64,000 nt of DNA from a virus (IMGVR_UViG_3300042567_001420), one strand, 5' to 3'. Shown: positions 12,220 to 48,244, numbered from the stretch's first letter. The notes: generated by a model from the sequence alone, not told the origin. Made by a program: numbers and translations.

Positions 12220-12876
12220 TTATATTACCGAATCGGGTTCCATTGCAATAAAATATTCTAATGGCTTTGTAGCGTTTTTAAAGTGGAACAATTTCTTTTT
12301 AGCAACTGTTACTGCATAAGCATCGGGAATGATCTTAAAGTTTTCAACTGCCATATGACATTCAAATGTTGCATCTGATGCTCCGATTGTCTTTTTATAA
12401 GTGTTTGCAGTATCATTTTTCTTATCACCAATGGTCAATGTAACTTGTCCATTTTTGCTAATAACAGAAATTGTAGGTGCTGCTGTAATTGCGGCTGCCT
12501 TCATAATCATGTTAACATCTTCAGATGATAGATTGAATTTAAAGTGTTCGTCAATCTCAATGTTCTTATCGGGTGCTGCTACAATAACGCTTGCGTTAGA
12601 ATAGAAGTATTCAAATTTACCATTGTCTTTAGAGATAGTCAAAGACTTTTCGCCAAAATCAACTTGCTGATTCTCCATCAATGTTAACAATGCCAACAAT
12701 GAATTCAAATCATAAACAGGAACTTCTACTGGGAAGTCTTCGTTAACTGTTACACGCGCAAATATATTCTTTGCTGTGCTGATTGTAGATAACGTCTGAC
12801 CTTTACGGATCAAGATGTTACTATTAATTGCGGCGAAGTTCTTTAAGAACTGGATTGTTTCATTACTAAATTGCAT
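12220..12876 (-). CDS. 45: Sliding clamp gp45
   Basis: LKNFAAINSNIL, YDLNSLL, YFIAME. Confidence 0.95.
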   Translation of the reverse strand: MQFSNETIQFLKNFAAINSNILIRKGQTLSTISTAKNIFARVTVNEDFPVEVPVYDLNSLLALLTLMENQQVDFGEKSLTISKDNGKFEYFYSNASVIVAAPDKNIEIDEHFKFNLSSEDVNMIMKAAAITAAPTISVISKNGQVTLTIGDKKNDTANTYKKTIGASDATFECHMAVENFKIIPDAYAVTVAKKKLFHFKNATKPLEYFIAMEPDSVI

Positions 12877-18054: not shown

Positions 18055-18066
18055 AAAATACTCAAT

Positions 18067-20598: not shown

Positions 20599-20599
20599 A

Positions 20600-27777: not shown

Positions 27778-27784
27778 ATTATCC

Positions 27785-28792: not shown

Positions 28793-28826
28793 TTTCAATT
28801 CCTATAATGAATTTATAATATACATT

Positions 28827-28888: not shown

Positions 28889-30076
28889 TTAAAATGGGAT
28901 GTCCTCATCCTCTGTAACCTTGTTTTCTTGAACTGGGGCAATTGGTTCTTCCATCGGAGGGGAATCAATCTTAGAATACAAATCCATAAACGCATTCTTT
29001 GTGTCATCGTCAAAACGATTAATACACAGATTAATTGCCTTGCTACGATCTTTAAATACTGAAAATGCTTTTACAATATGAACAAGACGTCGAGTAGAAA
29101 TCAATTCGTCAATTGCATCTTCCATATATGTCTTACGAATAATCTCTGCCCATGCAACCAACTTGTCTGCAAATTCTTCATCCACGCAATTGCTTGTTTC
29201 CATATTGTTGATAATGATCTTGCGCTCAATTGATGTTGAAGGATATTCTTGTTCAACTGTAATTGGGAATCGCTCTAAGAAAGCTTCGTCAAGAATTTGT
29301 GCCGCAATATACTTGCCGTCATCTGTACCTCGACCTTTAGTATTTGCTGTAGCAATAACATTAAAGCCTTCGGCCGGATAAATTACTTCACCGTTCTTTT
29401 TATTAAAGTATGACTTGCCTTCAAGGATACCCTGAATACACATCAACTTATTTGAACCACGATCAATTTCGTCAATCAAAAGAACTGCGCCACGCTTCAT
29501 TGCTGTAATAACTGGACCTTCACGGAATGTAACATTGCCGTCAATCAAAGTAGAACCACCTACAAGGTCATCCTCATCGGTTTCAATAGAAACATTGACA
29601 CGAATACATTCACGTTTTAATTTAGCACATACTTGTTCTACCATTGTAGTTTTACCGTTACCAGTAAGACCAGTAATAAACAATGGATAAAATGCTTTAG
29701 ATTTTACAATAGATTCTAGATCTTTATAAAAACCAAACGGCACATATGTTGCGTCTTTATTTGGAATTAGGTTGTCAACCTCTGTTACTAGTTTGCGTTG
29801 ACGCAATTGAACAACTTGAGCTTGCATTGCAGGCATTTCTACAGGAGAAGCTGTTACTGGAGTATGGGGAATGTTATTCATTTTATCTGTTCCAAATGCA
29901 TCAAGATTAATAATACCACGGCCTGCTCGATATGCCTCACCGTTGATCAACCAGTTAGGCATAGTAATGTCTTTTTGCTTGATAAAAGCAATAACATCTT
30001 TTCTAGCAGCGGTTTTACCAAATGCTTGAATCAGATCAGATACAATTTGTTTCTTTTGAATGTCAGTAGATTTCAT
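28889..30076 (-). CDS. MoxR/CobS-like AAA+ ATPase
   Basis: GLTGNGKT, LLIDEID, ATANTKGRG, AFLERF, ISTRRL. Confidence 0.92.
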   Translation of the reverse strand: MKSTDIQKKQIVSDLIQAFGKTAARKDVIAFIKQKDITMPNWLINGEAYRAGRGIINLDAFGTDKMNNIPHTPVTASPVEMPAMQAQVVQLRQRKLVTEVDNLIPNKDATYVPFGFYKDLESIVKSKAFYPLFITGLTGNGKTTMVEQVCAKLKRECIRVNVSIETDEDDLVGGSTLIDGNVTFREGPVITAMKRGAVLLIDEIDRGSNKLMCIQGILEGKSYFNKKNGEVIYPAEGFNVIATANTKGRGTDDGKYIAAQILDEAFLERFPITVEQEYPSTSIERKIIINNMETSNCVDEEFADKLVAWAEIIRKTYMEDAIDELISTRRLVHIVKAFSVFKDRSKAINLCINRFDDDTKNAFMDLYSKIDSPPMEEPIAPVQENKVTEDEDIPF

Positions 30077-32849: not shown

Positions 32850-33402
32850 TTAGTGCCTCTATCATTGTTTTAACTGCGTATTTTTTAATTATCTTTTTAC
32901 GCTTATTTTCGAATTTCTTTTTAGCATAATCTAATTTAAATTTAGAAACTCGGTCGGTATAATCAGTACCATTCATATGGTCATATTCATGTTGGAATAT
33001 TCTAGCAGTTAATCCATTAAACTCTTGCTCAATTATCTGCCCCGTTTCATTCTGATATGTAGCTTTAATTTTAATTGGTCTTTTAATACCTAACACAATG
33101 CCAGGATAAGATAAACAACCTTCATTAAATAATTCTTCAATATCACTATATTCTATTATCTCGGGATTAAATACTGCAATTTTAGTTTCACCTAATCCCA
33201 TTACAAATACTCGCAGGTCTAACCCTACTTGATTTGCACTCAAACCTACACCACCTAGTTGTTTCATTCTTTCAAATAAAACAGTAGAAATGCCAGGCGC
33301 GCTTTCACCTTCATTGGTAAAATCATAAAGCGCAGGGGGAGCACGCATTACCTCATTATCGGGTTCAACTAAATTTAATTTGTCTTTTCTTAATATAATC
33401 AT
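32827..33402 (-). CDS. def: Peptide deformylase
   Basis: GVGLSANQVG, EGCLS, QHEYDH. Confidence 0.96.
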   Translation of the reverse strand: MIILRKDKLNLVEPDNEVMRAPPALYDFTNEGESAPGISTVLFERMKQLGGVGLSANQVGLDLRVFVMGLGETKIAVFNPEIIEYSDIEELFNEGCLSYPGIVLGIKRPIKIKATYQNETGQIIEQEFNGLTARIFQHEYDHMNGTDYTDRVSKFKLDYAKKKFENKRKKIIKKYAVKTMIEALNVNKDSD

Positions 33403-35111
33403 GATATTCTACTAAAATTTTGATACTTTTGAAACTTAATTACAGACTTAAATTTATCTAGTAGTTGATCGCCTTTATGCGAAATTACAAATACGTTTGT
33501 ATCTTCACCAATTGTATTTAATAAATTCATTACATAGTCTGTGCCATTTGTGTCTAATGAAGAATCAAATACTTCATCTAATAATAGTAAATTTGTACTT
33601 GCACTATTTTTCATCTTGGCAATTGTTCGCCAAGTAAACAATAACGCTAAATCTATTCTTTGTTTTTCGCCTTCACTAAATGAAGCATAACTAAACTCGT
33701 CTCTGTGTCTAGATTTAATTACTTCATTAAAAGATTCATCCAATTCAAAGTGAACAAAGAAATCCATTGCCGCCAGATACTTATTTACTAATTTATTTAT
33801 TGCAGGTAAGTATTGACGAATGATCTTTGTTTTAATGCCGGTATCTTTTAGCAATACACTTGCAATATCTAAATAATGCTTATCTTCTGATAATTTACTT
33901 TTTTCCCCTGCAAGTGCGACCACTTCCTTGGCCAAGTTTTTAAGTTTCCTCGTTTCATCTTCAATGTTTGCCGTATCATTATTGTTGACTGCCAGGTCCG
34001 CCTGTAGCTTTTGAATGTATGTTTGAGATGCGATGATCTTTGATTGGTATCGAATGATGTTGCTTGTATATTCAGAGATTTTCTTTTCGATCGCATCAAT
34101 CTCATTAAGTCTAGTTTCAACACCTTCAAGTTGCAAGCCAAGGGCTTCAATCGCAGATTGCACTTCTTCACGTTTATGTGTATGAAGTTCGATTGCGGAT
34201 CCTTTGAGATGTTCGTCAAGATCCTGGCTACACGTTGGACAAACATCGTGGTCGTGGTAAAATTGTATGCTTGTTTCTTGATTAGTAATTCTTTCGGAAA
34301 GCTTTCTAAGCAACGCTCCCATCTCCGTACGCTTGTTACGCTTCTCATCGGCGTCAGATATAGAGGATTTACAACTCGTTTCTTTTTCTTGCTCGACCAG
34401 CATTCCTGCATTAAGTTGTGATATCTCAGCATTCGATTCAAGTATGCGCTTTTGTACATCTTCAACTTTCTTTTGTTTGTCGTTTTCGAGGGTTGCAATA
34501 TATTGTTGATGCAACTTGACCTTATTTTTACCTAAGGTAATATCATTTTCAATCTCTGTTATACGAGCTTTTATTTCAGTTGTTTTATCTTTTAATACTG
34601 CATTCATAACTGTGAAAATTTGAATGTCTAAAATATCCTCAATAATTTCACGTCTCGATCCCAATGCTAATTGCATAAAGGGAGTAAATGATGCAGATCC
34701 TAATATAACAATCTGAGTGAATGATTTGTAATTTAATTTTAAAATACTTTCTTCAAGATACTTTTGATAGTCTCTTGCGGCAGCATCTTGATTCAATAAT
34801 ACGTCATTGCAATAGATTTCAAATATGCCAGGTTTCATTCCTCGCACAATTCTATAATCTTTGTTACCGATAGAAAATTCAACCTCAACAACAAGTAACT
34901 TGCCGTTGATAGTATTCATTAACTGCGGTTTGTTAATATTCCTAAATGGTTTATTAAAAAGTACAAAACAAATTGCATCTAAAATAGTGCTTTTGCCTGC
35001 ACCGTTTTCGCCCACAATTAAAGTAGATGAGGATTTAGTAAAATCTATTTCAGTAAATTGTCCGCCGGTTGATAAGAAGTTTTTCCAACGTATTTTCTTA
35101 AATTTTATCAT
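33399..35111 (-). CDS. 46: Recombination endonuclease subunit gp46 (Rad50/SbcC-like)
   Basis: GENGAGKST, CPTC hook, FSEGEK, LLLDEVFD, VISH. Confidence 0.97.
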   Translation of the reverse strand: MIKFKKIRWKNFLSTGGQFTEIDFTKSSSTLIVGENGAGKSTILDAICFVLFNKPFRNINKPQLMNTINGKLLVVEVEFSIGNKDYRIVRGMKPGIFEIYCNDVLLNQDAAARDYQKYLEESILKLNYKSFTQIVILGSASFTPFMQLALGSRREIIEDILDIQIFTVMNAVLKDKTTEIKARITEIENDITLGKNKVKLHQQYIATLENDKQKKVEDVQKRILESNAEISQLNAGMLVEQEKETSCKSSISDADEKRNKRTEMGALLRKLSERITNQETSIQFYHDHDVCPTCSQDLDEHLKGSAIELHTHKREEVQSAIEALGLQLEGVETRLNEIDAIEKKISEYTSNIIRYQSKIIASQTYIQKLQADLAVNNNDTANIEDETRKLKNLAKEVVALAGEKSKLSEDKHYLDIASVLLKDTGIKTKIIRQYLPAINKLVNKYLAAMDFFVHFELDESFNEVIKSRHRDEFSYASFSEGEKQRIDLALLFTWRTIAKMKNSASTNLLLLDEVFDSSLDTNGTDYVMNLLNTIGEDTNVFVISHKGDQLLDKFKSVIKFQKYQNFSRIS

Positions 35112-36163
35112 GCTTCATTATAATGTTGTGCTTCTACATATAAAGTCTTTAGCAAAGTCTTTAACCGCTCTTTGTCAGAATCTGTTTCAACGCTATCTAC
35201 ATAATCAGATAACAATGTCATAGTATCTTCTAGATCAATTGAATCATCCAATGCACTAGCTTCAAACTCTGAAAAGTCTTCTATAATTTTTAATTCTATA
35301 GGATTGTTTGTATAAATAGCTTCTACAAATTTATCGAATTTTAAAATATCTTTTTTGTTAACTACTACGAGTTTAACATACTTGTTAGTAAATATTGACT
35401 TGTCAATTAGATTAGGATCTGTCTTTTCATCGTCATAGTAATGTTTAATAAACATATTAAACGGATTCTGAATAAAATCAAACAAACCAGTATCAGTATC
35501 GAAGATGTAAAATCCTTTAGGATCGCCTTCATCGTTCCAAGCCAGTTCGTATGGAGTACCCAAATATACGATGTTATCTTCGTGCGACCTAGTATGATAA
35601 TGTCCACTGAAAACAGTATTATAGGTTTTCAGCATTGCTCGATCCATACCATCATGACTATCAATACCTTTCATCATTTGAAATCCTGATAGCTCAAAAT
35701 GACCGGCACAAAAATCGGATGCGGATTTAGTTATAAAGTCTGCAATGTCATTTTCATTTTCTTTACAGATCCAAGGAATAATGTCCATTTGAGCATTGTC
35801 AAATTTTAACGTTGTAGGTTCTTGAATGATAGTAATGTTATCGTAATCTTGTAATAACAAATCTGGAGAATTTACTTTTAGGCTTTCTTTCCAGAATATA
35901 TCGTGATTGCCAATTAAGGCAATTAGATCCATTTTCTTTTCAACTATCACATCAAAGAAATATCGTCGTGCCTCAGCAAGAGACATAAAGTTAATATATT
36001 TTCTTCTATCAAATAGATCACCTAGTTGCAATATAGTTTTTATATTGTTTTGTTCTAGATATGGAAAAAGAATCTCGCTATAAAATTTCTCATAATATGC
36101 ATGGAATGCTTTAGAATCATTCCTAACACCAAAATGAGTATCGCCCAATAAACAAAGTTTCAT
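35108..36163 (-). CDS. 47: Recombination endonuclease subunit gp47 (Mre11/SbcD-like)
   Basis: GDTHFG, LGDLFD, GNHD, SGHYH. Confidence 0.96.
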   Translation of the reverse strand: MKLCLLGDTHFGVRNDSKAFHAYYEKFYSEILFPYLEQNNIKTILQLGDLFDRRKYINFMSLAEARRYFFDVIVEKKMDLIALIGNHDIFWKESLKVNSPDLLLQDYDNITIIQEPTTLKFDNAQMDIIPWICKENENDIADFITKSASDFCAGHFELSGFQMMKGIDSHDGMDRAMLKTYNTVFSGHYHTRSHEDNIVYLGTPYELAWNDEGDPKGFYIFDTDTGLFDFIQNPFNMFIKHYYDDEKTDPNLIDKSIFTNKYVKLVVVNKKDILKFDKFVEAIYTNNPIELKIIEDFSEFEASALDDSIDLEDTMTLLSDYVDSVETDSDKERLKTLLKTLYVEAQHYNEA

Positions 36164-36166
36164 GTA

Positions 36167-36649
36167 TTAATTAAATTCGTTGTCTTCTCTATGACCAGAA
36201 CGGCCTGCCATATTAGAATCAGTCTCGCGAACTTCTACTCGGCAGCACCAAACTCTTTTAGCTTCTTCGCTGCCGCAATTTGGCAAAAAGATTGTGTTAA
36301 TATATTCATATAAGAAGTCAGATAAACCTTCACACCCTGTACGCTCTACTTCTGTGATCTTAGCTAGTTTTAATCTACCCAATTCCAATAGATGTTCGCG
36401 CATTGGATCATCTTGTGCAACTAGCAGAGTGTGGTCAAACCATTCTTCTAGCTTGTCTTTAAGTGGTCGTAGCCCACCAAAATCAGTTACCCAATTACGA
36501 GCATCCAATGTATCTGCTTCAAATTCGAAATGAAAACTCATGGCATAACCATGAATCAAATTACAATGTGAATCTGCACGCCATTGCCGATATGCAACCG
36601 GACCTATTTGTCTATATGTTTTTGTTGAGAAGAATTTTTTATTTGCCAT
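36167..36649 (-). CDS. queD: 6-carboxy-5,6,7,8-tetrahydropterin synthase QueD
   Basis: HCNLIHGY, WVTDFGGL, FDHTLLVA, VEVRET. Confidence 0.9.
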   Translation of the reverse strand: MANKKFFSTKTYRQIGPVAYRQWRADSHCNLIHGYAMSFHFEFEADTLDARNWVTDFGGLRPLKDKLEEWFDHTLLVAQDDPMREHLLELGRLKLAKITEVERTGCEGLSDFLYEYINTIFLPNCGSEEAKRVWCCRVEVRETDSNMAGRSGHREDNEFN

Positions 36650-36687
36650 CTCTTGCCTCTTTAAGTAAGTTTGACGACATGCAGAAT

Positions 36688-37710
36688 TTATAAAGCGGGA
36701 TGAATGTTCGGGTAAGACCGCTGGTTTGTTAAAGCCTCATATGTTTGAGAATTATACCATGTGTTTAAAGATGATAAAATATCAGACATATCATATACAG
36801 GTGTCCAATCTGCAAGACGTTTAAACATTGTACTATCAGCAACTAACGATGGAGGATCTCCATCGCGTCGTTTATTAATAAATGTTACAATTTCTTTATT
36901 GGTAATTTTTTCTACAAGCATTTGAATTTGTAGATTAGAATGCCCCTGAAGCATCCCTAAATTATATATGCCTTGAATAGAATTGTCAATAGCTTTTATG
37001 TGTGCAAGTGCAATATCTTGAACATGAATATAATCTCTAATACAAGTTCCGTCGGGCGTATCATAGTCTGCACCATTTAAAGTGAATGATGTATTATGTT
37101 TGACTGCTTCAAATAGTTTGGCAAAGATATGTGTTGCATTTGGTTCTTGCCCATGCTGACCTTTATCGTCAGCTCCGCATGCATTGAAATATCTAAATGC
37201 AGTGAAATTTAAGTTGTGGCATCGATGATACCATTCCAATAAATGTTCAACCATTAATTTAGATTGACCATAAGGAGAAATAGGATCGACCTTATCGTTT
37301 TCCCTCAATGGTGTTTTTGTTGTAGGAATGCCGTAAACAGATGCGCTACTACTAAAAATAATCTTAGTCTTTGGAATATGTTTAGCAACGAAATCTAAAA
37401 GCAAATTTGTTTTAGATACATTGTTGTGAAAGTAATGTCCTGGATTTTTCATACTAGGACCAACAAGGCTAGTGCCTGCACAATGAATAATTGCTACAGG
37501 ATAAACCTTTTTATATAGACTAAACGCATCCATGTCTGTAAAATCACATTGAAGAAACTCATCTTGAAATGCATCAAGATGATCGTTGTGTCTGTTATCA
37601 ATACCGATAACTTCGTAGCCTTGTTTCTTTAATTCGATGCAAGTCTGGCCGCCGATATAACCGGCAGAACCCGTAACAACGACTAATTTAGTACTTGGCT
37701 GCTGGGACAT
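36688..37710 (-). CDS. galE: UDP-glucose 4-epimerase GalE-like
   Basis: GSAGYIG, SSSASVYG, PYGQSK, RYFNACGA, DGTCIRDYIHV, RRDGDPPSLVAD. Confidence 0.9.
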   Translation of the reverse strand: MSQQPSTKLVVVTGSAGYIGGQTCIELKKQGYEVIGIDNRHNDHLDAFQDEFLQCDFTDMDAFSLYKKVYPVAIIHCAGTSLVGPSMKNPGHYFHNNVSKTNLLLDFVAKHIPKTKIIFSSSASVYGIPTTKTPLRENDKVDPISPYGQSKLMVEHLLEWYHRCHNLNFTAFRYFNACGADDKGQHGQEPNATHIFAKLFEAVKHNTSFTLNGADYDTPDGTCIRDYIHVQDIALAHIKAIDNSIQGIYNLGMLQGHSNLQIQMLVEKITNKEIVTFINKRRDGDPPSLVADSTMFKRLADWTPVYDMSDILSSLNTWYNSQTYEALTNQRSYPNIHPAL

Positions 37711-38857
37711 GATCTCTATAATCCTTACCGCTACGATACCATTTAGCATTATCCTCAAACATAATATCCAAACAACGATCAATAGTACCAGATGTCCAGT
37801 CAGACAACTTGCCTAGATTTGCTCGCTCTTGAACCAGCAATGTATTTAATTTAAATACTGCGTCATCTTGTGACCATGGAATATAAAGACATTCGCGATC
37901 ATTAGCAAATGATTCTGGGAAAGATCTATAAGCAGGATACAAACAATTTGTACCTAATGCATCTGCCTCTGATGCAGTGTTGCTTACCCAATCCTGCAAT
38001 GCACAATTAAACAATACTCGAGAATCGCCCAACAATTCATAATACTCATTCTTTTTAAGATTTTCATAGATTTTAAAATTATGAGTCTTTTCCAATGCTC
38101 GCGCGCGAGTCAAATACTTTTCGTTATTACTACGCAAAGGTCCACCCGATAACACAGCAAATTCTACACCCGGGTTAACTGTATGATATCTTTCAATAAG
38201 ATCCATAAAGAAATCAGGTTGTTTCTCCTGATCAAATCTTGCAGCAAATACCACACGTTGTTTACGCTGATTAAATGGAATACGATTTGCTACACGACTA
38301 CGAACTTCATCTTTATCAAATGCAAGTCCGGAGATATTAAAGATTGGCGCTTCCCAACCTGCAATTTTCATATGAGCAACCATTTCTTCGTTAGATGCAA
38401 GTACACCTGTAACAAATTGATCTGTCATTTTCTCATAAAGACCCATCCACTTCTGCATATCCCATACGTGAACAAAATCATCGGGGTCAATAGATTGTGC
38501 AAGACAACGAACAAAAATTCTAGGTTGATATTCGTAGCTTACTTGATCCATAATATAAGGCAGCGCCTCAATACCGGGAGTAAACATATCTTCAAAAAAG
38601 ATTGTGTCTTCAAATGTTATTTCGCCAGCTTTCATCTTCTTAATAAGATTAGCCATTTGTGTCAGCGAATAATAACTACGCCCATGTGCATCAAGCACTT
38701 GACCGGTAACAATTGCTTTAGAGTCATCTAGAATATCACCATGAATTACTTCATAGTCAATACCTCTGCGTTTAAATGCAGCTTCGCTCCATTGTTGCAA
38801 TTGTAAAGTATAGCGACCTTCATAAGGTTCTAAACCCATATAATATAATTTACTCAC
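37688..38857 (-). CDS. GT-B (GT4-like) glycosyltransferase B of the deazaguanine cassette
   Basis: FAARFDQEKQP, D-x7-E (DWVSNTASE), LYPAYRSFPE. Confidence 0.72.
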   Translation of the reverse strand: MSKLYYMGLEPYEGRYTLQLQQWSEAAFKRRGIDYEVIHGDILDDSKAIVTGQVLDAHGRSYYSLTQMANLIKKMKAGEITFEDTIFFEDMFTPGIEALPYIMDQVSYEYQPRIFVRCLAQSIDPDDFVHVWDMQKWMGLYEKMTDQFVTGVLASNEEMVAHMKIAGWEAPIFNISGLAFDKDEVRSRVANRIPFNQRKQRVVFAARFDQEKQPDFFMDLIERYHTVNPGVEFAVLSGGPLRSNNEKYLTRARALEKTHNFKIYENLKKNEYYELLGDSRVLFNCALQDWVSNTASEADALGTNCLYPAYRSFPESFANDRECLYIPWSQDDAVFKLNTLLVQERANLGKLSDWTSGTIDRCLDIMFEDNAKWYRSGKDYRDHVPAAKY

Positions 38858-39302
38858 CTGCTATCCTTTCAAAACTAATTCTGCAACCGTTTTCACCATC
38901 TTCTGATACTTCAATAGTATAATCCCTATCAGGCCATTGTGCCGCACATTTATCATAAAGCTCACATGCCATCATTTCGCATGACTTATAATCTAAATGT
39001 AGTGTGCCATCAGAATACCATCGTTCCATAATGCGTTTTGCCTGAATAAATTCTACATCTCGATCATCATGAAATACTTCCATCTCTACGCGGAAATGAA
39101 AAATATGTCTATGCGGTGTTCCTAAGAATGAAACATCCAGCCAATCGCCTGTTGCTAATTTAGGATCAGTTGCTGCTTGGGGATATTTATGAATACCCTC
39201 TTTACGAAAGGTAACCCAAATAGAACTTTTCTTTTTAATTAATTTACTGTGTATAATTGTATCTGTAAAAAATACTGGCTCGTTTGAAATAATATCGGTC
39301 AT
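38850..39302 (-). CDS. T-fold QueD paralog, DpdL-like (predicted 7-carboxy-7-deazaguanine decarboxylase)
   Basis: LGTPHRHIF matches the LxxxHRHxF signature as recalled; SCEMMA; EVSEDGENG; immediately downstream of dpdA. Confidence 0.6.
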   Translation of the reverse strand: MTDIISNEPVFFTDTIIHSKLIKKKSSIWVTFRKEGIHKYPQAATDPKLATGDWLDVSFLGTPHRHIFHFRVEMEVFHDDRDVEFIQAKRIMERWYSDGTLHLDYKSCEMMACELYDKCAAQWPDRDYTIEVSEDGENGCRISFERIAGE

Positions 39303-40585
39303 GCAAATAAATCCTCAAGTGAAACTGGTGGTTGTGTGTTAACTGGTTCAGACTCCATATACTTTCCTACATTTCTTTCCCAATCTTCAAAATCAGAAAG
39401 ATTCTTAACATCAAACAATGTAGCGTATTCATTCTCACAGCCTTTTTCTCTACAGAACTTTAAGAACAATTCTTTCGATTCTGTTAAAGCATTGACATCG
39501 TGAGTAAAATTATGTACGTTTGTTAAAATAAAAGCAAGACGTGCTCGCATAATATCAACAAATTTTCCGCCTGCTTCTAAATGAACGCCGACCCCTCGGT
39601 TCATTAAGATATGGTATTCTTCAGGAGTATAATTTGTTCCACATACTGCATTAATTTCTGTAGTAACTGTTCTATAAATGTTAGAATACTCTCTGCCCAT
39701 TTTTACAGATGTGCCGCCATATGGGGAACCTGCTGCCTTTTTAGCGAATGAAAAATAAAACAATCCATTATCTAATGACATGGAATGTGTAGTAGAGTCA
39801 TATGAAATATCAATACCTTCATATAGACCAGATTGACTAAAACAAATATAAGGCAGAATGCGACGTAATGCACCTACACCCAATACGTGTAAATGAAATG
39901 GTCTAGTATACGGCATCTGTGTAACATAGAATGCTCGTTTAACGTCTTCTAATTGTCCCATACCCAGAGCAGCCGATCCCATAGCAAGACCACCGATACG
40001 ATGATGCAATGCCGGAGTAATTTCTTCGAGTACTAATTTTGCCCAGCGTGAATATGATTCTTGCGATGAACCCTGCATAATAACAAATGGTCTACATTTG
40101 CTACCCATCTTATCGAATGTTTCAATTTGCGATTTTACATTCCTGCCCGTTTGTCTTGCATAATCATCAAAATTATCCATGTCTGCATATCTACGCTTAG
40201 TATCAATCTTAGATGATACGCCACTTGTAGAAGTTGTCTTAACAGGAATCTCATCAAACGACATACCAATGTCTGCATATGCACCTTGATTCAAATAAAC
40301 TTTTTCTCTAACTTCTGGAGTATTTTTTAAACCGCGAGTAATAATCTGCAAACCTCCAGAGTCAGCATGAATATTATTAATTGAAGCACGAAACTTTTGT
40401 AACTTAGGTCCAAAGTTCTTTTCCGTAAATCCATTATACAATAATGAGAATGTGTGGTTGTTTTGTTTATGACATACTTTAGCAATCATGTCAAGCATCA
40501 TTTCTAATACATCGGGGTCATTACATTGTTCTGCACCCAGCCGCAAATATGCTGGGCCAGAAATTACGTATTCATATGTTCTCAT
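39299..40585 (-). CDS. dpdA: DpdA-family DNA guanine transglycosylase (TGT fold)
   Basis: DSGGLQ, SFDEIP, MQG, GGLAMG, HVLGVG and SYDST mirror TGT motifs; no TGT zinc CxCxxC; folE/queD/queE context. Confidence 0.82.
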   Translation of the reverse strand: MRTYEYVISGPAYLRLGAEQCNDPDVLEMMLDMIAKVCHKQNNHTFSLLYNGFTEKNFGPKLQKFRASINNIHADSGGLQIITRGLKNTPEVREKVYLNQGAYADIGMSFDEIPVKTTSTSGVSSKIDTKRRYADMDNFDDYARQTGRNVKSQIETFDKMGSKCRPFVIMQGSSQESYSRWAKLVLEEITPALHHRIGGLAMGSAALGMGQLEDVKRAFYVTQMPYTRPFHLHVLGVGALRRILPYICFSQSGLYEGIDISYDSTTHSMSLDNGLFYFSFAKKAAGSPYGGTSVKMGREYSNIYRTVTTEINAVCGTNYTPEEYHILMNRGVGVHLEAGGKFVDIMRARLAFILTNVHNFTHDVNALTESKELFLKFCREKGCENEYATLFDVKNLSDFEDWERNVGKYMESEPVNTQPPVSLEDLFA

Positions 40586-41943
40586 GCAAACAGGCTTTCT
40601 AATGAAGAAGTGACTTCTTCTTTTGGTATAAAATTAGGATCTTTAGATAAGTATGTGTCGTTGTCTGTGTAAATTATATTATATTTAGACTTATTTGTCA
40701 ATATACTTTTGACATCATCTATAGCTAATTGTGATCTATTTAGGATTTTAATAAAGTCTGAATATTTGATTTCGGTATAATCATTAATTTTTGCAGAATC
40801 AGATCGTGACAAAGATGTTTGAGTGTAACTAGATAAGAATTTTTTCCATCTATCAGATGTTTGAAAATCCAAATGTTTGATATACTGCAACGCATCATGG
40901 TTGCGTTGTTTTCGATCAGCATTATATTCTACTTTTAATACTTCGGCAACTTCATTTAACGGTAACCGAATATAATATGCAGGATCAAAATTAGTTACCC
41001 ATTCAGATTTGTCAATAACAATACAAGGCATATGACCTAAACATTCAAAAAATGTGAACGGGTAATTTTCTCTTAGTGAAGGGTTAAAGTGAACCTTTGC
41101 AGATTTAATAAAGTCAACTTTTTCTTTACCAACAATACTAGCTTTAATCTCATAATCGGTAATACCAAGTTCTGCAAGACGAGCTTCAAACTTTTTCTTG
41201 CCGTTAGCATTCGTCATAATTTTTGCAGGCAATCCAGTCTCTTTAATTACTTTTAAAAATGCTTCTGGATTTTTACGATCTTCCCACCGACCAATATATA
41301 AGACGCCTTTTCTTTCTGAATAATCACTTGTGAGCAATTCTCTTTCAGACATAGGCATACTTAAATGTTCTACATCAACTCCGCCATTATTTTTAATTTC
41401 AGTTACATTACGTGCAGATTGTGTGCCAATATAACAACTTTCAAGATTCATTAAGTTGTTAAAAAATTCATTACAACTTTCTAAGAATACGCCTTTGAAT
41501 TTTCTAGTATCACGGAACACCATACTCTCTTCATGCGTGTAAAATACTACAGGAATGTAACTATTAAGATCAAAACTCAATACTGCGGGCATAGCCTCTA
41601 AAGAATTACATACTACCATATCATAGATATTAGTATGAAAAGCATTCATAACAGCATCACGGAAATTAATCATCTTTTCAAAGTTAATTGAATCAGTAAA
41701 TGCAAAAGTACCGGTATGATTTTTATATGACAAGGCATTTTTCGGAGCAATTAAATTTGCGCCCAATGATTCAACTAATTTTGCAAACTCATTTGTTGTG
41801 GGTTTGTCCGTAATAATATCAACCTTCCAGTCAATTTTATTTGCCATTTCAACAAATCCCTTTGCAAATTGTCCAATCCCACCATGCGGAACAAGGTGTT
41901 GATCGCTAATGCAAAACGCAACTCTCTTTTTATAAAGACGCAT
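40582..41943 (-). CDS. GT-B (GT4-like) glycosyltransferase A with C-terminal extension
   Basis: HGGIG, YIGRWEDRKNP, E-x7-E (ENYPFTFFE), about 90 extra C-terminal residues ending SLESLFA. Confidence 0.85.
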   Translation of the reverse strand: MRLYKKRVAFCISDQHLVPHGGIGQFAKGFVEMANKIDWKVDIITDKPTTNEFAKLVESLGANLIAPKNALSYKNHTGTFAFTDSINFEKMINFRDAVMNAFHTNIYDMVVCNSLEAMPAVLSFDLNSYIPVVFYTHEESMVFRDTRKFKGVFLESCNEFFNNLMNLESCYIGTQSARNVTEIKNNGGVDVEHLSMPMSERELLTSDYSERKGVLYIGRWEDRKNPEAFLKVIKETGLPAKIMTNANGKKKFEARLAELGITDYEIKASIVGKEKVDFIKSAKVHFNPSLRENYPFTFFECLGHMPCIVIDKSEWVTNFDPAYYIRLPLNEVAEVLKVEYNADRKQRNHDALQYIKHLDFQTSDRWKKFLSSYTQTSLSRSDSAKINDYTEIKYSDFIKILNRSQLAIDDVKSILTNKSKYNIIYTDNDTYLSKDPNFIPKEEVTSSLESLFA

Positions 41944-41944
41944 A

Positions 41945-42454
41945 TTACTCACCAAGAATTTTAATTAAGTGTTTTGTTTGATGCATCGCATCATCTAAGG
42001 CATTATGATACGTACCTTCGCGTTTGTCTTCTGGAATCCAATTGAACATTGCTTTAGCAGTTCGGTAACAACGATCATCCCAGCATTTCCAAGGTGGTTC
42101 TCTGCCTGTAATGAAGTATGCATTACCTAAAATTGTGTTATCAAATACAGCACCGTTTCCCCAAATAGGTAAACTCTTAGGGCCAAACCATAACTCAAAT
42201 TTATCCAATGCTTCTTGCAATGATATATTATTCTTTGTTAATTCTCGCAAGGCTTCTTTATTTTGTTTAGACCACCATGCAACGGTATCTTTAGAAATAT
42301 GCATTCCAGCTTCTTTACAGCTAGCAAGATCAATGGTGCAATAAAATGTATCTACAATTTTACTACCTTCAAATTTTACTGCACCAATTGAACAAATTGC
42401 TGCGTGTGATCTTGTTGACATTGTTTCCAAGTCAACCATTACATTAATTGTCAT
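41945..42454 (-). CDS. DEDDh 3'-5' exonuclease (Rv2179c/DexA-like)
   Basis: VDLET, WGNGAVFD, HNALDDA. Confidence 0.88.
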   Translation of the reverse strand: MTINVMVDLETMSTRSHAAICSIGAVKFEGSKIVDTFYCTIDLASCKEAGMHISKDTVAWWSKQNKEALRELTKNNISLQEALDKFELWFGPKSLPIWGNGAVFDNTILGNAYFITGREPPWKCWDDRCYRTAKAMFNWIPEDKREGTYHNALDDAMHQTKHLIKILGE

Positions 42455-43134
42455 TTACATCCTTGTCGGGCAATCTGATAAAACTCGTTTCTTACTGCTG
42501 GATCATTTTTAAATCCACCACCTAAACGAACTGTTACTGTAGAGCTACCTGTGTCTTCAACACCTCTAGATTTTACGCAATAATGTTGAGCATCAATCAA
42601 GACTGCAACATCTTCAGTATCAAGAATATACTGTAAAGTATGAAACACTTGCTCTGTTAAGCGTTCTTGAATCTGAGGGCGTTTGCTAAAATATTCTACA
42701 ATACGATTGATCTTAGATAGACCAAGAACCCTAGTCTTAGGTACATAAGCAACTGTTGCTAATCCATCGATAACAACAAAATGATGCTCGCAATTAGATT
42801 GCACATTTACATTGCGCTCACATACCATTTCGTTATACTGCATTTTATTATCTACAGTAGTGCATTTTGGAAATGCATCATAATCGAGACCCCAAAAGAT
42901 TTCATTAACATACATTTTAGCAACACGCTTAGGTGTTTCAATTAGACTATCATCTGTAAGATCAAGGCCAAGTGTTTCCATGATCTTGGCAAATAAAGGT
43001 TCGATAACTGCTATCTTATCTTTACGATCTGGAATTAATGATTTTTTTGTTGGGGTTTCAACACCCATTTTAACTAGGTGTTCGTGAACTCGTTGACCCA
43101 ATTCTGGATCGCATTTAGTTTTATTGAAACTCAT
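42451..43134 (-). CDS. folE: GTP cyclohydrolase I
   Basis: ETPKRVAKMY, CEHH, GLSKINR, RPQIQERLT, HYCVKSRG. Confidence 0.97.
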   Translation of the reverse strand: MSFNKTKCDPELGQRVHEHLVKMGVETPTKKSLIPDRKDKIAVIEPLFAKIMETLGLDLTDDSLIETPKRVAKMYVNEIFWGLDYDAFPKCTTVDNKMQYNEMVCERNVNVQSNCEHHFVVIDGLATVAYVPKTRVLGLSKINRIVEYFSKRPQIQERLTEQVFHTLQYILDTEDVAVLIDAQHYCVKSRGVEDTGSSTVTVRLGGGFKNDPAVRNEFYQIARQGCK

Positions 43135-43267
43135 TTGATAACCTTCCTTTGTGATGGTTTATTTTTGACAGTATGTTACCGTTGCGTAACATAAGTATTT
43201 ATTACTTTGATTTTGTTGTTGGATCACACCCGCATACGCCTTACTGACTTCTTACGGGTGACCATAA

Positions 43268-43462
43268 TTATGCCTTAGTTTTCGCTTCTGCTCTAGCTGC
43301 TTTTTCGGCAGTAATTTCATTGCGACGTGCTTTAACTGCTTTAGATAACTCTGCTAATGCTTTGCGTGTACGTGTACCTGCGGCTGCATTGCCTTTGTTA
43401 AATTTCTCATTCTCAGCATTATATGCTGCTAAACTTGTTTCGATGTCGTTATGTGCGCTCAT
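43268..43462 (-). CDS. Small Ala/Lys-rich protein, Hc1 (histone H1-like) N-terminal-like
   Basis: KFNKGNAAAGTRTRKALAEL; AAGGA RBS. Confidence 0.65.
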   Translation of the reverse strand: MSAHNDIETSLAAYNAENEKFNKGNAAAGTRTRKALAELSKAVKARRNEITAEKAARAEAKTKA

Positions 43463-43478
43463 ATTATTTTCCTTTTAG

Positions 43479-44348
43479 TTAAGTGCCCCATGCGTTTTTA
43501 AACAATGGGATTTGTAGTCGGTCGGAATATCTCCAACCTTTTTGCATTGCGTACTCTGCAACGCTGCGATTATTAAGAGAGTACAGCCGCTCAGTCCCAC
43601 CGAGAGGCATAAGATAAACAGGACCTGAGAAACCAGCTTTACGATATGCATTTACTGCCTCTTCTGCTTCTTCTGCATCTTCTTTAGATCCAATTACAAA
43701 TTTAAGATATGTATATCCTACCCATTCATACCCTGCTACAATTTCTGGGCAAATTGCATCTTCCCACTTTTCACCTGATACCGATAGTTTAGGTGAAACT
43801 GAAAATGTTAAAGCATCACAACCTCTTTTGCTTGTGCGACCTTTATTATTTAGTGTCCAATTTAAAAGATATTGTTTAAATTCATTAGACAAAGGTTGTG
43901 TTCCATTTGTCTCAAATGTCAATTCTTTTAATGCTATCATTTTTTCATTACCGAGTAATTCCGGATATTGTTTTTGCCAACCTAATAGAGGCTCACCTCC
44001 AGTAATAACTAGGTGTTCGTCTTGCCATTTTTTATACGGGAGTGTATCGACGATTGCTTCCACAACATCTTTAACATCGAGTACAGGGCTAAGATGCTTA
44101 AAACGAGGGTCCCAACTAGCATAGGAATCACAGCCAGTGTGTACGAGAGGCAAGTCATTATAATTTTTAAAGCTTTCGGCCTTAATCGAGATAACATTTC
44201 GTTCATCGCTTTTTTCGCCTTTTGGCATGCCGAACCCGTCGCAAGTAAAATTGCAACCAAATGTTCTTAAGAAGACAGAGGGCGCACCCATATAGCGGCC
44301 TTCACCCTGAATTGAATAAAATAGTTCTGAAATTTTAAGTTTAGCCAT
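43479..44348 (-). CDS. queE: 7-carboxy-7-deazaguanine synthase QueE (radical SAM)
   Basis: ELFYSIQGEG, FLRTFGCNFTC...GCDS, ITGGEP, FETNGT, SVSPKL, RLQIPL. Confidence 0.93.
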   Translation of the reverse strand: MAKLKISELFYSIQGEGRYMGAPSVFLRTFGCNFTCDGFGMPKGEKSDERNVISIKAESFKNYNDLPLVHTGCDSYASWDPRFKHLSPVLDVKDVVEAIVDTLPYKKWQDEHLVITGGEPLLGWQKQYPELLGNEKMIALKELTFETNGTQPLSNEFKQYLLNWTLNNKGRTSKRGCDALTFSVSPKLSVSGEKWEDAICPEIVAGYEWVGYTYLKFVIGSKEDAEEAEEAVNAYRKAGFSGPVYLMPLGGTERLYSLNNRSVAEYAMQKGWRYSDRLQIPLFKNAWGT

Positions 44349-44373
44349 AATGACTCCGTTCAACAATACTCAT

Positions 44374-44402
44374 ATTATATAGTGTTTAATCATCTAAGTC
44401 AA
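44374..44402 (-). promoter_or_regulatory. sigma70-type promoter heading the DNA-modification cassette
   Basis: TTGACT-N17-TATAAT, overlapping the 3' end of gp55. Confidence 0.8.
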
Positions 44403-45006
44403 GTGGATTACTTGAATCGTCCGAAATTATTTTGTTCTTTTTAGGAGTTGAAATTACCCGTTTTTCAATATCAATAGTATCCATTTGCCGTTTTAAGTAA
44501 TCTAAGAACTGATTACCAAATTCGCCGTTGTCATGTTCTTGAAGAATTAATGAATCAATATCCATATTCTCAATCAATTTATACTTAGTAGCTTGTTGCT
44601 TCTTTTCTTTTTGGATACGTCTAATAAAAGCAAAGTATATAATTTGAGTATAATATGCGAAAGGATTTGATCCTTTAGATGGGTCAAATTTGACAACAGC
44701 AGTTAGACAATTTTCAATTCCATCTGAAATCATATCATCTTTAAATGTATAATTAATGAAATTAGATTTATAAGATAAATGTGTTGCAATTTTAATAAAG
44801 CATTCACCTATGTAGTTAGATACAATAGGTGGTTCTTTTCCTGCGGCCGCCGCATCAACTACACTTTGTCTATATTCAATAAGAGCTTGTAAAAACTTTT
44901 TATTGTCTACATAGTGAGACGAAGTAGGAATTTTTACTTCCTTAACTACTTCAGCTATTTCAGTGGAGAGTTCTTCCACGTCTTTTAGGGGGTTCTTTGT
45001 TTTCAT
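44386..45006 (-). CDS. 55: Late-transcription sigma factor gp55 (start uncertain)
   Basis: HYVDNKKF, YIGECF, FINYTFKDDMISDG, NPFAYYTQI..AFIRRI. Confidence 0.95.
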   Translation of the reverse strand: MKTKNPLKDVEELSTEIAEVVKEVKIPTSSHYVDNKKFLQALIEYRQSVVDAAAAGKEPPIVSNYIGECFIKIATHLSYKSNFINYTFKDDMISDGIENCLTAVVKFDPSKGSNPFAYYTQIIYFAFIRRIQKEKKQQATKYKLIENMDIDSLILQEHDNGEFGNQFLDYLKRQMDTIDIEKRVISTPKKNKIISDDSSNPLDLDD

Positions 45007-45400
45007 TATGCTCTTCTTCAAGTGTGTTTATAAATTTATCTACAATTTCTTGGATTTGTTCTTTTTCCAAATCCTTTTCCTCAACCTCAGAAATTTCAGG
45101 ATCTGCCCTGGAATCTATGAATTTTATATAATTATCTTTTAATGTTTCTTTTGTATCAACAGCAACTATAATATGATCTGTTGATATCTCAAAACTTTCT
45201 GTGTTTCCTAATGCTACCCAGGGGGATAAAATATATGATTCTACAATCATATCGCCCCTTGGCATTCTAATCTGATTTAATACTACAGGATCTGTAATTG
45301 ATATGTTACGCCCTTTAAGGTCTTTACATTCATCGAATGTTTTACATATTATATCTTCACCACTTGTTAATTTTAAAATTTTAACATTCGGATCGTTCAT
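44960..45400 (-). CDS. Conserved hypothetical protein, probable Sm-like fold
   Basis: VKILKLTSGEDIIC; lies between uvsW and gp55. Confidence 0.7.
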   Translation of the reverse strand: MNDPNVKILKLTSGEDIICKTFDECKDLKGRNISITDPVVLNQIRMPRGDMIVESYILSPWVALGNTESFEISTDHIIVAVDTKETLKDNYIKFIDSRADPEISEVEEKDLEKEQIQEIVDKFINTLEEEHNENKEPPKRRGRTLH

Positions 45401-46884: not shown

Positions 46885-47324
46885 TACATCATACCGTTTG
46901 TGAACTTAGACCATTCAATACTATTCTTGATATCCCATGTTCTACTGTTTAAGGATCTTATAATTTGTTCTAATTGATACATAACAGTTTTAAAGTATTC
47001 TACTTTGTCTTGTAGTAAAATTAAATCTGCATCAACCTGCAAAAATTCGTCCATCTCATTTTTCAATGGTTTGTTACCTTGCCATTGAGTCCAACCTTCA
47101 TCTGATAATTCAAGCTGGGTCATTTCTCCCCTGTAATACTTGTATTTCTTTCTACGAAGGTTGAGATATTCAGACTCTGCTTTGCGTAGGTTAAGCCGAG
47201 TAGATGTTAAAAAATTCAAATACTTAGAATGTAATAAAGGTGTGCGAGCAGATTCATGTCCAAGATTAGTCTCATTAATCTTACAATCATCTGCCCACAT
47301 TTCCTGCAGGTCAGATAATTTCAT
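46884..47324 (-). CDS. uvsY: Recombination mediator UvsY
   Basis: LHSKYL, KYYRG, RTWDIKNSIEW. Confidence 0.92.
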   Translation of the reverse strand: MKLSDLQEMWADDCKINETNLGHESARTPLLHSKYLNFLTSTRLNLRKAESEYLNLRRKKYKYYRGEMTQLELSDEGWTQWQGNKPLKNEMDEFLQVDADLILLQDKVEYFKTVMYQLEQIIRSLNSRTWDIKNSIEWSKFTNGMM

Positions 47325-48244
47325 TACTGAGGGCTAATCTGAATAATCTGAGCAGGGTTGCCCTGGAAATTAAATGAACCGTAGTGATTCAATGAGATTG
47401 TTGGATCAAGCCAAATGTCGCCACCGATATCTTGCCAACGTCTGCTGAATGTATAATCTTCTGACAAGTAACGTTTGTCTTTGGGATCAATCATTGTGTC
47501 GAAGAATGCATAGAAGAAGTCTTGCAAATCTGGCGGAGTATTCAAATCATTGTTATACTTTAACTCTGGATATGCAGCAATCATCTTGTCAATTGCTTCA
47601 CGCTTAATCATCATAAAGCCTGTAGCTCCGTCGTGCAATTTAATTACACCATTTTCAATAGCAATTTGTTTTGACTCACGATTAACAAACTTAAAGTTAA
47701 TCGCATAGTCGGAACCAGCGGCAGCAATATCTCTATCAGAAATATCTTGACCGGGTTTAGAATTAATGCTATCTTTAATACGTTGCCAGTTGACGCCCTT
47801 TTTAGGATATGCGCCTACACAAACTTCTTTGTTGTGAGCAATTAATTTAAGTACATCTTCAACTTGAAACTCAATATCAGCATCAATAAACAACAAACGA
47901 GTGTAATTGCTTTGAAGAAAATATGCAACCAACACATTGCGAGCACGAGTAACTAAAGACTCATTTGCAATAGTACCAAACGCCAATGGGATTTGATGTT
48001 GATTGAAGAATGTCAATGTGCGAACCATTGAACGGAAATATGCCTCTGTAAGCATACCACCATAACAAGGAGTTGCCACAAAGATTCTTTCTTTACGCAA
48101 ATCATCAATATTGATTTGCAATTGACCTGGTTGTGCGGCAGGGGGTGCCGCAGGGGGTGCCGCAGCTGCGACTGGGGGTTTGTTAAACTTAGGAACCGGA
48201 ATTTTTGGAATGTTCTTCAGTCCAGGTTTATTGTTGTTAGCCAT
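47324..48244 (-). CDS. GT-A-fold glycosyltransferase-like protein with Pro/Ala-rich N-terminus
   Basis: IFVATPCYGG, ESLVTRARN, FIDAD, LSEDYTF; located after gp3. Confidence 0.7.
   Translation of the reverse strand: MANNNKPGLKNIPKIPVPKFNKPPVAAAAPPAAPPAAQPGQLQINIDDLRKERIFVATPCYGGMLTEAYFRSMVRTLTFFNQHQIPLAFGTIANESLVTRARNVLVAYFLQSNYTRLLFIDADIEFQVEDVLKLIAHNKEVCVGAYPKKGVNWQRIKDSINSKPGQDISDRDIAAAGSDYAINFKFVNRESKQIAIENGVIKLHDGATGFMMIKREAIDKMIAAYPELKYNNDLNTPPDLQDFFYAFFDTMIDPKDKRYLSEDYTFSRRWQDIGGDIWLDPTISLNHYGSFNFQGNPAQIIQISPQ

Follow-up and report, generated by a model that had tools for sequence, protein, structure and literature searches.

A candidate replication-coupled module for glycosylated 7-deazaguanine in the DNA of freshwater T4-like phages

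The viral stretch IMGVR_UViG_3300042567_001420 (64,000 nucleotides, analysed as a whole and called the window below) comes from a T4-like myovirus of freshwater. Between its genes for a gp55-like sigma factor and gp47 lies a cassette of ten minus-strand genes (36167-44402) in which enzymes of 7-deazaguanine DNA modification are interleaved with two glycosyltransferases (GTs), here termed GT(A) and GT(B), and with the epimerase GalE. Read from gp55 to gp47, the order is queE, hc1, folE, a DEDDh exonuclease gene, GT(A), dpdA, dpdL, GT(B), galE and queD (Table 1). The major capsid protein of the phage is nearest to that of Methylophilales phage Melnitz (66%), followed by those of pelagimyophages and cyanomyophages, and the stretch was recovered almost unchanged from at least 20 lake or freshwater metagenome runs dating from 2016 to 2024. 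No relatives of the cassette were found in cultured-phage DNA by megablast, relatives being detected at the protein level only. In dozens of IMG/VR contigs, however, the cassette is again found between gp55 and gp47, with proteins 47-99% identical, and because of this recurrence the arrangement is no chance juxtaposition.

An earlier reading of this DNA, the original prediction, had described ten genes in this order as one tightly overlapping unit between gp55 and gp47, and all ten are indeed present on the minus strand. The tight overlap applies to most junctions, which share 4-23 nt, and ATGA overlaps couple cassette genes translationally, although gaps of 133 nt between hc1 and folE and of 38 nt between galE and queD interrupt the unit.

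Table 1. Cassette genes, C-terminal tails, promoter-like sites and relevant neighbours in the window, listed from the gp55 side to the gp47 side, with the sliding clamp last.
Feature	Coordinates	Strand	Basis or remark
gp55-like late sigma factor	44386..45021	-	Upstream flank; Pfam Sigma70_r2 9.5e-5; position same in relatives
Sigma-70-like promoter TTGACT-N17-TATAAT	44374..44402	-	Upstream of queE; 11/12 consensus positions, by consensus match only
queE, 7-carboxy-7-deazaguanine synthase, radical S-adenosylmethionine (SAM) enzyme	43479..44348	-	phrog_2076 QueE-like 8e-51; Pfam Radical_SAM weak
hc1, Hc1-like, histone H1-like DNA-binding protein	43268..43462	-	Pfam PF07432 6e-12
folE, GTP cyclohydrolase I	42451..43134	-	Pfam 1.8e-60; phrog_2197 5e-73
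DEDDh 3'-5' exonuclease, Rv2179c-like	41945..42454	-	Pfam PF16473 4.7e-46
GT(A), GT-B fold, GT4-like, with C-terminal extension and clamp-binding-type tail	40582..41943	-	AlphaFold2 model, mean confidence (pLDDT) 90.6
SLESLFA, C-terminus of GT(A), gp45-binding-type epitope	40585..40605	-	Kept in homologues down to 47% identity
Perfect sigma-70 consensus TTGACA-N17-TATAAT	40673..40701	-	Inside GT(A) 3' end, upstream of dpdA; 12/12, by consensus match only
dpdA, predicted DNA-guanine transglycosylase, DpdA2-like	39299..40585	-	VH7D DpdA2 homology; phrog_10773 3e-99
SLEDLFA, C-terminus of DpdA, gp45-binding-type epitope	39302..39322	-	Same motif as the polymerase of the lineage
dpdL, QueD paralogue, proposed 7-carboxy-7-deazaguanine decarboxylase	38850..39302	-	150 amino acids (aa); LGTPHRHIF; phrog_17812
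GT(B), GT-B fold, GT4-like	37688..38857	-	AlphaFold2 model, pLDDT 77.8
galE, UDP-glucose 4-epimerase	36688..37710	-	NCBIfam equivalog TIGR01179 278.3 bits, above 262.3 cut-off
Perfect sigma-70 consensus TTGACA-N17-TATAAT	36961..36989	-	Inside galE, upstream of queD; 12/12, by consensus match only
queD, 6-carboxytetrahydropterin synthase	36167..36649	-	phrog_2389 3.8e-41; Pfam PTPS 3.6e-15
gp47, SbcD/Mre11-like nuclease	35108..36163	-	Downstream flank; Pfam Metallophos
gp46, SMC-like ATPase	33399-35111		Next after gp47
gp45 sliding clamp, to which the tails of DpdA and GT(A) are presumed to dock	12220..12876	-	Pfam gp45-slide_C 1.3e-8

Gene identities, folds, linkage and the conservation of C-terminal tails are what we observe at this locus, and we begin with the enzymes that make and insert the base. 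FolE, QueD and QueE are assigned at the level of the family. The NCBIfam QueE models match the window protein at 2e-14 to 3e-9, all under their own cut-offs, and the true start of queE is probably the ATG at 44348, which is preceded by GGAG. The window QueD is 70% identical to that of Acidovorax phage ACP17; in the window protein the QueD signature CxxxHGH reads CNLIHGY, with tyrosine in place of the second motif histidine. The QueD paralogue DpdL carries LGTPHRHIF where QueD-type proteins have CxxxHGH, and this fits LxxxHRHxF, the published signature of DpdL (PMC10516641). In that work DpdL is a candidate decarboxylase of 7-carboxy-7-deazaguanine (CDG), unvalidated as such, and the model given there has it acting on the free base (PMC10516641). 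The window DpdL is 56% identical to DpdL of ACP17 and 34.5% identical to the region of Cellulophaga phage phiST that holds DpdL. It also stands in the expected genetic context, together with DpdA, FolE, QueD and QueE and without a phage-encoded QueC, for which there was no family match in general scans of the window open reading frames (ORFs) and no match in three complete IMG/VR relatives. As no QueC is encoded, the phage-encoded pathway would end at CDG, or at 7-deazaguanine (DG) after DpdL, although the host might supply a QueC. DpdL homologues align from residue 29 onward only; in the window clade the N-terminus is extended by 28 residues, and the ATG of this extension overlaps the dpdA stop codon (ATGA).

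The transglycosylase is most readily compared with DpdA2 of Vibrio phage VH7D, to which the window protein is 35% identical over residues 5-290 (tblastn, E 2e-40) and whose gene, in its own record, adjoins folE, queF and queC. The two proteins have in common the motif HxDSGGLQI...NTPE, and D75-S-G-G-L-Q80 of the window protein is invariant in nine homologues, down to 28% identity; DSGG[FL]Q is a motif that we take to have a catalytic role in the tRNA-guanine transglycosylase (TGT) superfamily. The general model TIGR00449 (tgt_general) matches at 6.4e-7, with 28.6 bits that fall below its 47.6-bit cut-off. There is no Pfam TGT match, and no PDB sequence match was obtained either by phmmer or with a nine-sequence profile. 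On the basis of VH7D homology, TIGR00449 and the motif, the window protein appears to be a member of the DpdA2-like family, and base exchange is its predicted activity. The VH7D enzyme itself was shown in E. coli to place preQ1, preQ0 and, to a weak extent, CDG in DNA (PMC10516641).

Both glycosyltransferases yield models with the two Rossmann domains that define the GT-B fold, and both resemble family GT4. The best structural matches of the GT(A) model (Foldseek) are retaining GT4 enzymes, among them 6eji (E 2.7e-14), PglH, MshA, HepE, BshA, WaaG and PimA, and the GT(B) model reaches Z scores of 22-24 to GT4 enzymes, with 6kih at Z 24.0 (root-mean-square deviation 3.8 over 342 aligned residues; VIA). 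E296 and E304 of GT(A) are invariant and have the spacing of EX7E, which we take to be the motif of GT4-type retaining GTs; in GT(B), E297 is invariant and there is no second glutamate at +8. Against the Pfam model Glycos_transf_1, which has a cut-off of 26.4 bits, both stay under, GT(B) with 24.6 bits and GT(A) with 17.4 bits. The homologues of GT(A) start at residues 4-5 of its longest ORF. In a search with GT(B), 8,000 candidates were scored, of which 7,998 sequence clusters fell below E 0.001, and its top two viral structural matches are a BFVD entry and then the GT beside dpdA of ACP17. The assignment of GalE is supported by its match to the solved GalE 4twr (2e-59).

The position of the cassette had suggested a parallel with T4, where the DNA alpha-glucosyltransferase (a-gt) is found in the same interval. 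The T4 record bears out the order 55 ... a-gt - 47.1 - 47 and the shared position stands, but the parallel goes no further by sequence: blastp of T4 a-gt against the GT set gave a best E of 0.76, and in other phages the module adjoins the DNA polymerase gene, outside gp55-gp47. The T4 enzyme was not found in the top 50 PDB structural matches of either GT, and a cyanophage 'DNA alpha-GT' appears only at rank 31 when the viral structure library is queried with GT(B). We also set aside a reading of GT(B) as a QTMAN-like enzyme, as QTMAN_N (PF12038) is unmatched in eight members of the GT(B) family at E up to 5 and QTMAN is not in the top 30 Swiss-Prot structural matches.

What ties these enzymes to DNA modification is in the first place their genetic company. 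The counts for GT(B) refer to the best 80 of 527 viral stretches. Among these, dpdL lies within 3 kb of GT(B) in 70/70 loci, galE follows GT(B) directly in 72 of the 73 loci, and DpdA is encoded in 66/66, being DpdA2-like in 37 and of a 532-aa type with the classical DSGGFQ in 29. The trio dpdL-GT(B)-galE, which is the tightest unit of the cassette and was overlooked in the original prediction, therefore keeps company with two DpdA subfamilies. Around GT(A), DpdA is encoded directly downstream in 34 of 41 loci, and deazaguanine genes are nearby in 39 of them. The GT(B) family stands only beside dpdL and dpdA in all contexts looked at, and the linkage extends over at least six phage lineages. 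In Synechococcus phage BUCT-ZZ01 the order is queE...queD-folE-GT(A)-dpdA-dpdL-GT(B), with GT(B) at 64% identity. Distant relatives of GT(B) abut dpdA and/or dpdL in ACP17 (dpdA-GT-dpdL-queE), Xanthomonas phages BUDD and X1 (GT-dpdA-dpdL-queE), the PA5oct group (DpdA-like, GT, DpdL) and Sinorhizobium phage Phosso (dpdL-GT). Co-occurrence of the GTs with dpdA across phages had been proposed as a check, and its outcome supports a functional tie of the GTs and GalE to the deazaguanine DNA-modification genes.

Several variants of the cassette were seen in the course of this survey. In a second large freshwater clade (L078:4831-6429) the DpdA2-like gene is replaced by one for a TGT-like protein of 532-540 aa with DSGGFQ, which has no Pfam or NCBIfam match; the metagenomic version shares 39% identity with EST35_0316 of PA5oct (L148). 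Downstream of dpdL-GT(B)-galE, this clade has a cytidylyltransferase-like gene and genes for a PGDYG protein, FolE and a phosphoribosyltransferase. Elsewhere a 300-aa protein without a family match occupies the position of GT(A) (L019-L023, e.g. L020:5415-6317), or there is a GT(B) paralogue at 23% identity and galE is gone (L113-L115 and L123, e.g. L114:11089-12162). Taken as a group, the variants look like diversification or swapping of the sugar-transfer part, by analogy with the T-even glucosyltransferases.

The second line of evidence is provided by the C-termini of DpdA and GT(A). A tail of the form [ST]LE[DESNG]LF[AGTES] is present in all homologues of the DpdA2 type and in nearly all of those of GT(A); the linker that precedes it varies freely. 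The DNA polymerases (gp43) of the three complete relatives end in ATLEGLF[GS], and the polymerase and DpdA end alike in ACP17 (PSLDDLFE and TTLDELFE) and in BUDD (SSLESLFG and QSLEELFG); in T4, gp43 ends in SLDFLFG and gp55 in SLDFLYEAND. DpdA and GT(A) are the only proteins of the window that end in the motif, and in the complete 222-kb relative G001 it ends 3 of the 1124 ORFs of at least 50 aa, these three being gp43, DpdA and GT(A). GT(B), VH7D DpdA2 and T4 a-gt are without such a tail. In T4, hydrophobic/acidic C-terminal motifs on variable linkers act as interchangeable epitopes for the gp45 clamp (PMC2988020). DpdA and GT(A) resemble the T4 clients gp43, gp55 and gp33 in having a short C-terminal motif, S-L-[DE]-x-L-F, after a variable and presumably flexible linker, and the polymerase of their own lineage has this motif too; the difference is that here the carriers are a base-exchange enzyme and a glycosyltransferase, neither of which we found described as a clamp client. 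Since DpdA and GT(A) share the polymerase-type tail, they would be recruited to freshly replicated DNA, and the acceptor of GT(A) would be on DNA; the tails thus suggest that both are clients of gp45. Two further C-termini were noted. The ACP17 'gp26-like baseplate hub chaperone' (L002:13090-13851) ends in LEGLDDFFV, resembling the polymerase and DpdA tails of that phage, and a 395-aa protein of the window (28889-30076, minus strand) ends in EDEDIPF, resembling the acidic tip of bacterial single-stranded DNA-binding protein.

We propose, with a probability of roughly 0.55, that the cassette is a replisome-coupled module giving glycosylated 7-deazaguanine in phage DNA. FolE, QueD and QueE would convert GTP to the free base CDG, which DpdL would process, probably to 7-deazaguanine. 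The DpdA2-like enzyme, held at new DNA by its gp45-clamp epitope, would then swap guanine of duplex DNA for that base. GT(B), fed by GalE with an epimer of UDP-hexose or of UDP-N-acetylhexosamine (UDP-HexNAc), would attach the first sugar, on the free base or on DNA. GT(A), which is found in this clade and in BUCT-ZZ01 and would be tethered to the clamp, may act on DNA to add a second sugar or to modify further sites. The likely benefit would be protection against restriction and other nucleases. From CDG onward we infer every chemical step, as well as which atom accepts the sugar, what the donor is and in which order the two GTs act. A narrower version of the proposal is correspondingly tentative, and we hold it to be clearly less probable than the general one: that 7-deazaguanine with one or two sugars, in N- or C-glycosidic linkage, is present in the virion DNA of these freshwater phages, with a one-sugar form also in the PA5oct, ACP17, Xanthomonas and Sinorhizobium phages, and that it is written co-replicatively by a clamp-riding DpdA and GT.

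The original prediction had stated that the GTs glycosylate DNA, either on the deazaguanine or on a second base. The tie of the GTs and GalE to deazaguanine genes agrees with the first part of this, as does the clamp-type tail of GT(A), although the acceptance of sugar by DNA is something that we infer. The option of a second base has become less likely. Searches for an acceptor pathway were made in the three complete IMG/VR relatives, and because they revealed no match to the ThyA-family hydroxymethylases (PF00303), with ThyX present instead, a second modified base is the less likely acceptor; Tet/JBP proteins were likewise unmatched there, but so were they in the control genomes, which makes that search uninformative. 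A phage pathway that ends at CDG or DG would thus provide no pyrimidine handle. The cassette encodes no oxygenase, and so the sugar would be placed onto a ring or exocyclic nitrogen, onto C7 or C8, or onto the carboxylate of CDG. A precedent for the first of these is HuiG, a GT of huimycin biosynthesis that glycosylates a nitrogen of a free 7-deazapurine (bioRxiv 10.64898/2026.04.15.718813).

Two published observations may be consistent with this proposal. When dpdA and dpdL of ACP17 were expressed alone in E. coli, none of the deoxynucleoside of 7-deazaguanine (dDG) was formed, and the authors suspected a missing enzyme (PMC10516641). The gene between dpdA and dpdL of ACP17 encodes a GT, ASD50404, and the result fits a missing GT step. 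In PA5oct, the virion DNA withstands restriction enzymes whose sites contain G, and END nucleases that depend on hypermodification sense it, the modified base not having been identified in that study (PMC12191111); this result, too, fits a missing GT step. A glycosylated 7-deazaguanine in DNA was absent from the literature covered by our limited prior-art search, in agreement with the original prediction, which knew of none.

A number of points weigh against the proposal. The two GTs look like generic members of GT4 whose acceptors are lipids, sugars, thiols or pterins, and the fold of neither points to nucleic acid. The phage phiST and its relatives have DpdL and no detectable GT(B) homologue, and the DNA of phiST contains 100% dDG (PMC10516641), so that DpdL does not require the GT; Rhizobium phage RHph_I1_18 apparently has a further DpdL without a detectable GT(B). 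The DpdA2 enzymes assayed to date modify <0.1% of G (PMC10516641). GT(B) is without a clamp tail, and its substrate could be a small molecule in free form. Docking of the GT(A) tail (residues 418-457) to the gp45 trimer of the window received weak support from complex prediction, with a score of 0.42 against 0.00 for the best control, a partner pLDDT of about 40 and runs that agree in at least 54% of contacts; the mark used is reached by 51 of 78 solved complexes and by 2 of 108 mismatches, and a pass at up to 0.60 is wrong in more cases than it is right, except where the complex was already probable on other grounds. In addition, 7-deazaguanine has no side-chain hydroxyl, so that a sugar could be joined to it only as an N- or C-glycoside, or else to CDG as an ester, and we know of no such linkage in DNA. 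The case for a sugar on the deazaguanine of DNA is drawn from genes, folds, linkage and tails. Finally, the window holds a glycan island of 16 kb, and therefore GalE could serve other transferases.

One possibility is that GT(B), DpdL and GalE act on a free deazapurine or a pterin-like base, yielding a transient, activated or protected intermediate, which DpdA would use or which would lose its sugar later, or a soluble metabolite similar to huimycin or cyanobacterial biopterin glucoside, while the virion DNA carries plain deazaguanine. FolE, a PTPS-fold protein and a GT4 enzyme are also the logic of pterin glycoside synthesis, and tetrahydrobiopterin glucosyltransferases are among the structural matches (Z about 22). 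They are tied with many others, however, and no better than dozens of GT4 enzymes; we have rejected a pterin-glycoside function as a reading of its own and retain it only within this alternative. The absence of a clamp tail from GT(B) would agree with a free substrate, as would the activity of HuiG on a free 7-deazapurine and the fact that GT(B) is tied most tightly to DpdL, which is itself modelled on the free base (PMC10516641). Yet DpdA accompanies GT(B) in all 66 loci, the same operon holds a GT(A) that would be clamp-tethered, and a soluble metabolite has no obvious use to a lytic phage. We consider this alternative unlikely, though it survives best of those weighed here.

Less probable again is that the GTs act on DNA at a place other than deazaguanine, such as a canonical base, the backbone, or the abasic or intermediate sites of DpdA exchange, in which case the two modifications would be parallel and not stacked. 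The clamp tail of GT(A) would agree with this, as it argues for DNA and not for a particular acceptor, and the original prediction had itself allowed for a second base. The want of a ThyA-family match in the three complete relatives speaks against it, and an acceptor independent of deazaguanine would make it hard to explain why GT(B) is found only beside dpdL and dpdA.

The least probable of the three, and one that we regard as very unlikely, is that the GTs and GalE are a general auxiliary set of glycan or lipopolysaccharide type, acting on virion proteins or on the host envelope and merely lodged in a hyperplastic region: the window does contain the glycan island as well as a GT8-like gene, cyanomyoviruses and pelagimyoviruses commonly have such clusters, the gp55-gp47 interval is variable in T4 and the JGI label on both GTs is 'glycosyltransferase involved in cell wall biosynthesis', but the linkage persists in unrelated phages that have the module next to the polymerase gene and no evident glycan island, GT(A) shares a tail of DNA-polymerase type with DpdA, and the genes are translationally coupled.

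The island itself covers window positions 12947-28798 (minus strand, ~16 kb), between the gp45 clamp and replication genes. It encodes a GDP-mannose 4,6-dehydratase, four epimerases/reductases of the short-chain dehydrogenase/reductase (SDR) type, two DegT aminotransferases, a thiamine pyrophosphate (TPP) enzyme split in two ORFs, a methyltransferase, two GT2 proteins, a GT10 fucosyltransferase and a GT-D-like protein, and it may serve the virion, the host envelope or DNA as acceptor. The GT8-like gene lies directly after uvsY (47324-48244, minus strand) and encodes a 306-aa protein with weak GT8/Anp1-like similarity, which is found at the same position in relatives at 68-96% identity.

The remaining features of the locus concern its flanks, its promoter-like sites and the two accessory genes. 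On one side the cassette is flanked by genes for the gp55-like sigma factor, UvsW and UvsY, and on the other by those for gp47, gp46 and peptide deformylase. The TTGACT-N17-TATAAT promoter that had been placed ahead of queE is found at 44402-44374. Overall, promoter-like sites are no more numerous than in shuffled controls; the two perfect consensus sites within coding sequence may act as early promoters inside the cassette and divide it into sub-units. The hc1 gene is kept in part of the relatives only. The DEDDh exonuclease travels with the cassette in BUCT-ZZ01 (L001:11817-12341) and in L124 (about 12033), where it comes after GT(B), and may take part in the modification.

In comparison with systems already described, the window has most in common with the dDG system of phiST (Hutinet/Cui et al., NAR 2023, PMC10516641). 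FolE, QueD and QueE are encoded in both and QueC in neither; each also has a DpdL with LxxxHRHxF and a transglycosylase of the DpdA family, and both would be expected to exchange G for deazaguanine after replication. They differ in that phiST has no GalE and no homologue of GT(B) or GT(A), and in that its transglycosylase is a DpdA3, whereas the window has a DpdA2-like protein with a clamp tail. The product of phiST has been measured, as plain dDG with 100% replacement, whereas the window is known from genes alone. The validated DpdA2 enzymes of Vibrio phages VH7D and nt-1 (PMC10516641) are homologous to the window DpdA and share the DSGGLQI...NTPE motif. In contrast to the window, these phages encode QueC and QueF or ArcS, make dPreQ1, dPreQ0 or dG+, and have no DpdL or GT beside dpdA, and VH7D DpdA2 lacks the clamp tail.

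For the sugar-transferring part, the alpha- and beta-glucosyltransferases of T4 are the obvious comparison, being GT-B enzymes that transfer a UDP-sugar onto a modified base of replicated phage DNA, with a-gt in the gp55-gp47 interval. Apart from the lack of sequence likeness and of a clamp tail in a-gt, the 5-hydroxymethylcytosine (hmC) pathway is unmatched in the relatives, and the acceptor here would be a purine analogue. In some T-even phages two successive GTs build a disaccharide. Among the glycosyltransferases of huimycin and dapiramicin, HuiG uses a UDP-sugar to glycosylate a nitrogen of a 7-deazapurine derived from preQ0, and so the chemistry is feasible; it differs in belonging to actinomycete secondary metabolism and in acting on a free O-methylated base, with no DpdA and no DNA. 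In animal tRNA, QTGAL and QTMAN/GTDC1 form galactosyl- and mannosyl-queuosine, and thereby place a sugar on a 7-deazaguanine derivative that was installed by a TGT-family enzyme. There the sugar is taken up by the cyclopentenediol hydroxyl of tRNA queuosine, and QTMAN_N is undetected in the eight GT(B)-family members. The base-making and inserting half of the module is thus a member of the known DpdL/DpdA systems, and the GT half would be T-even-like in its action while standing outside those families.

To our knowledge, the glycosylated DNA bases described so far are pyrimidines, namely glucosyl- and arabinosyl-hmC, base J, glycosylated 5-hydroxymethyluracil and 5-hydroxycytosine, and the deazaguanines described in DNA carry small groups only. 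If the proposal is true, a sugar-bearing deazaguanine would join both chemistries on a purine and would be a hypermodification without a described counterpart. It would also account for the fact that dpdA and dpdL of ACP17 gave nothing in E. coli, and would offer a candidate identity for the modified G of PA5oct. The module is common, and the prediction can be tested in phages that are already cultured. It may be of practical relevance for the substrates of modification-dependent nucleases, for restriction and CRISPR resistance, for sequencing artefacts and as a source of enzymes for site-directed DNA glycosylation. More generally, the clamp tails of DpdA and GT(A) suggest a general route by which phages couple DNA modification to replication, with a logic comparable to that of the eukaryotic DNMT1-PCNA interaction.

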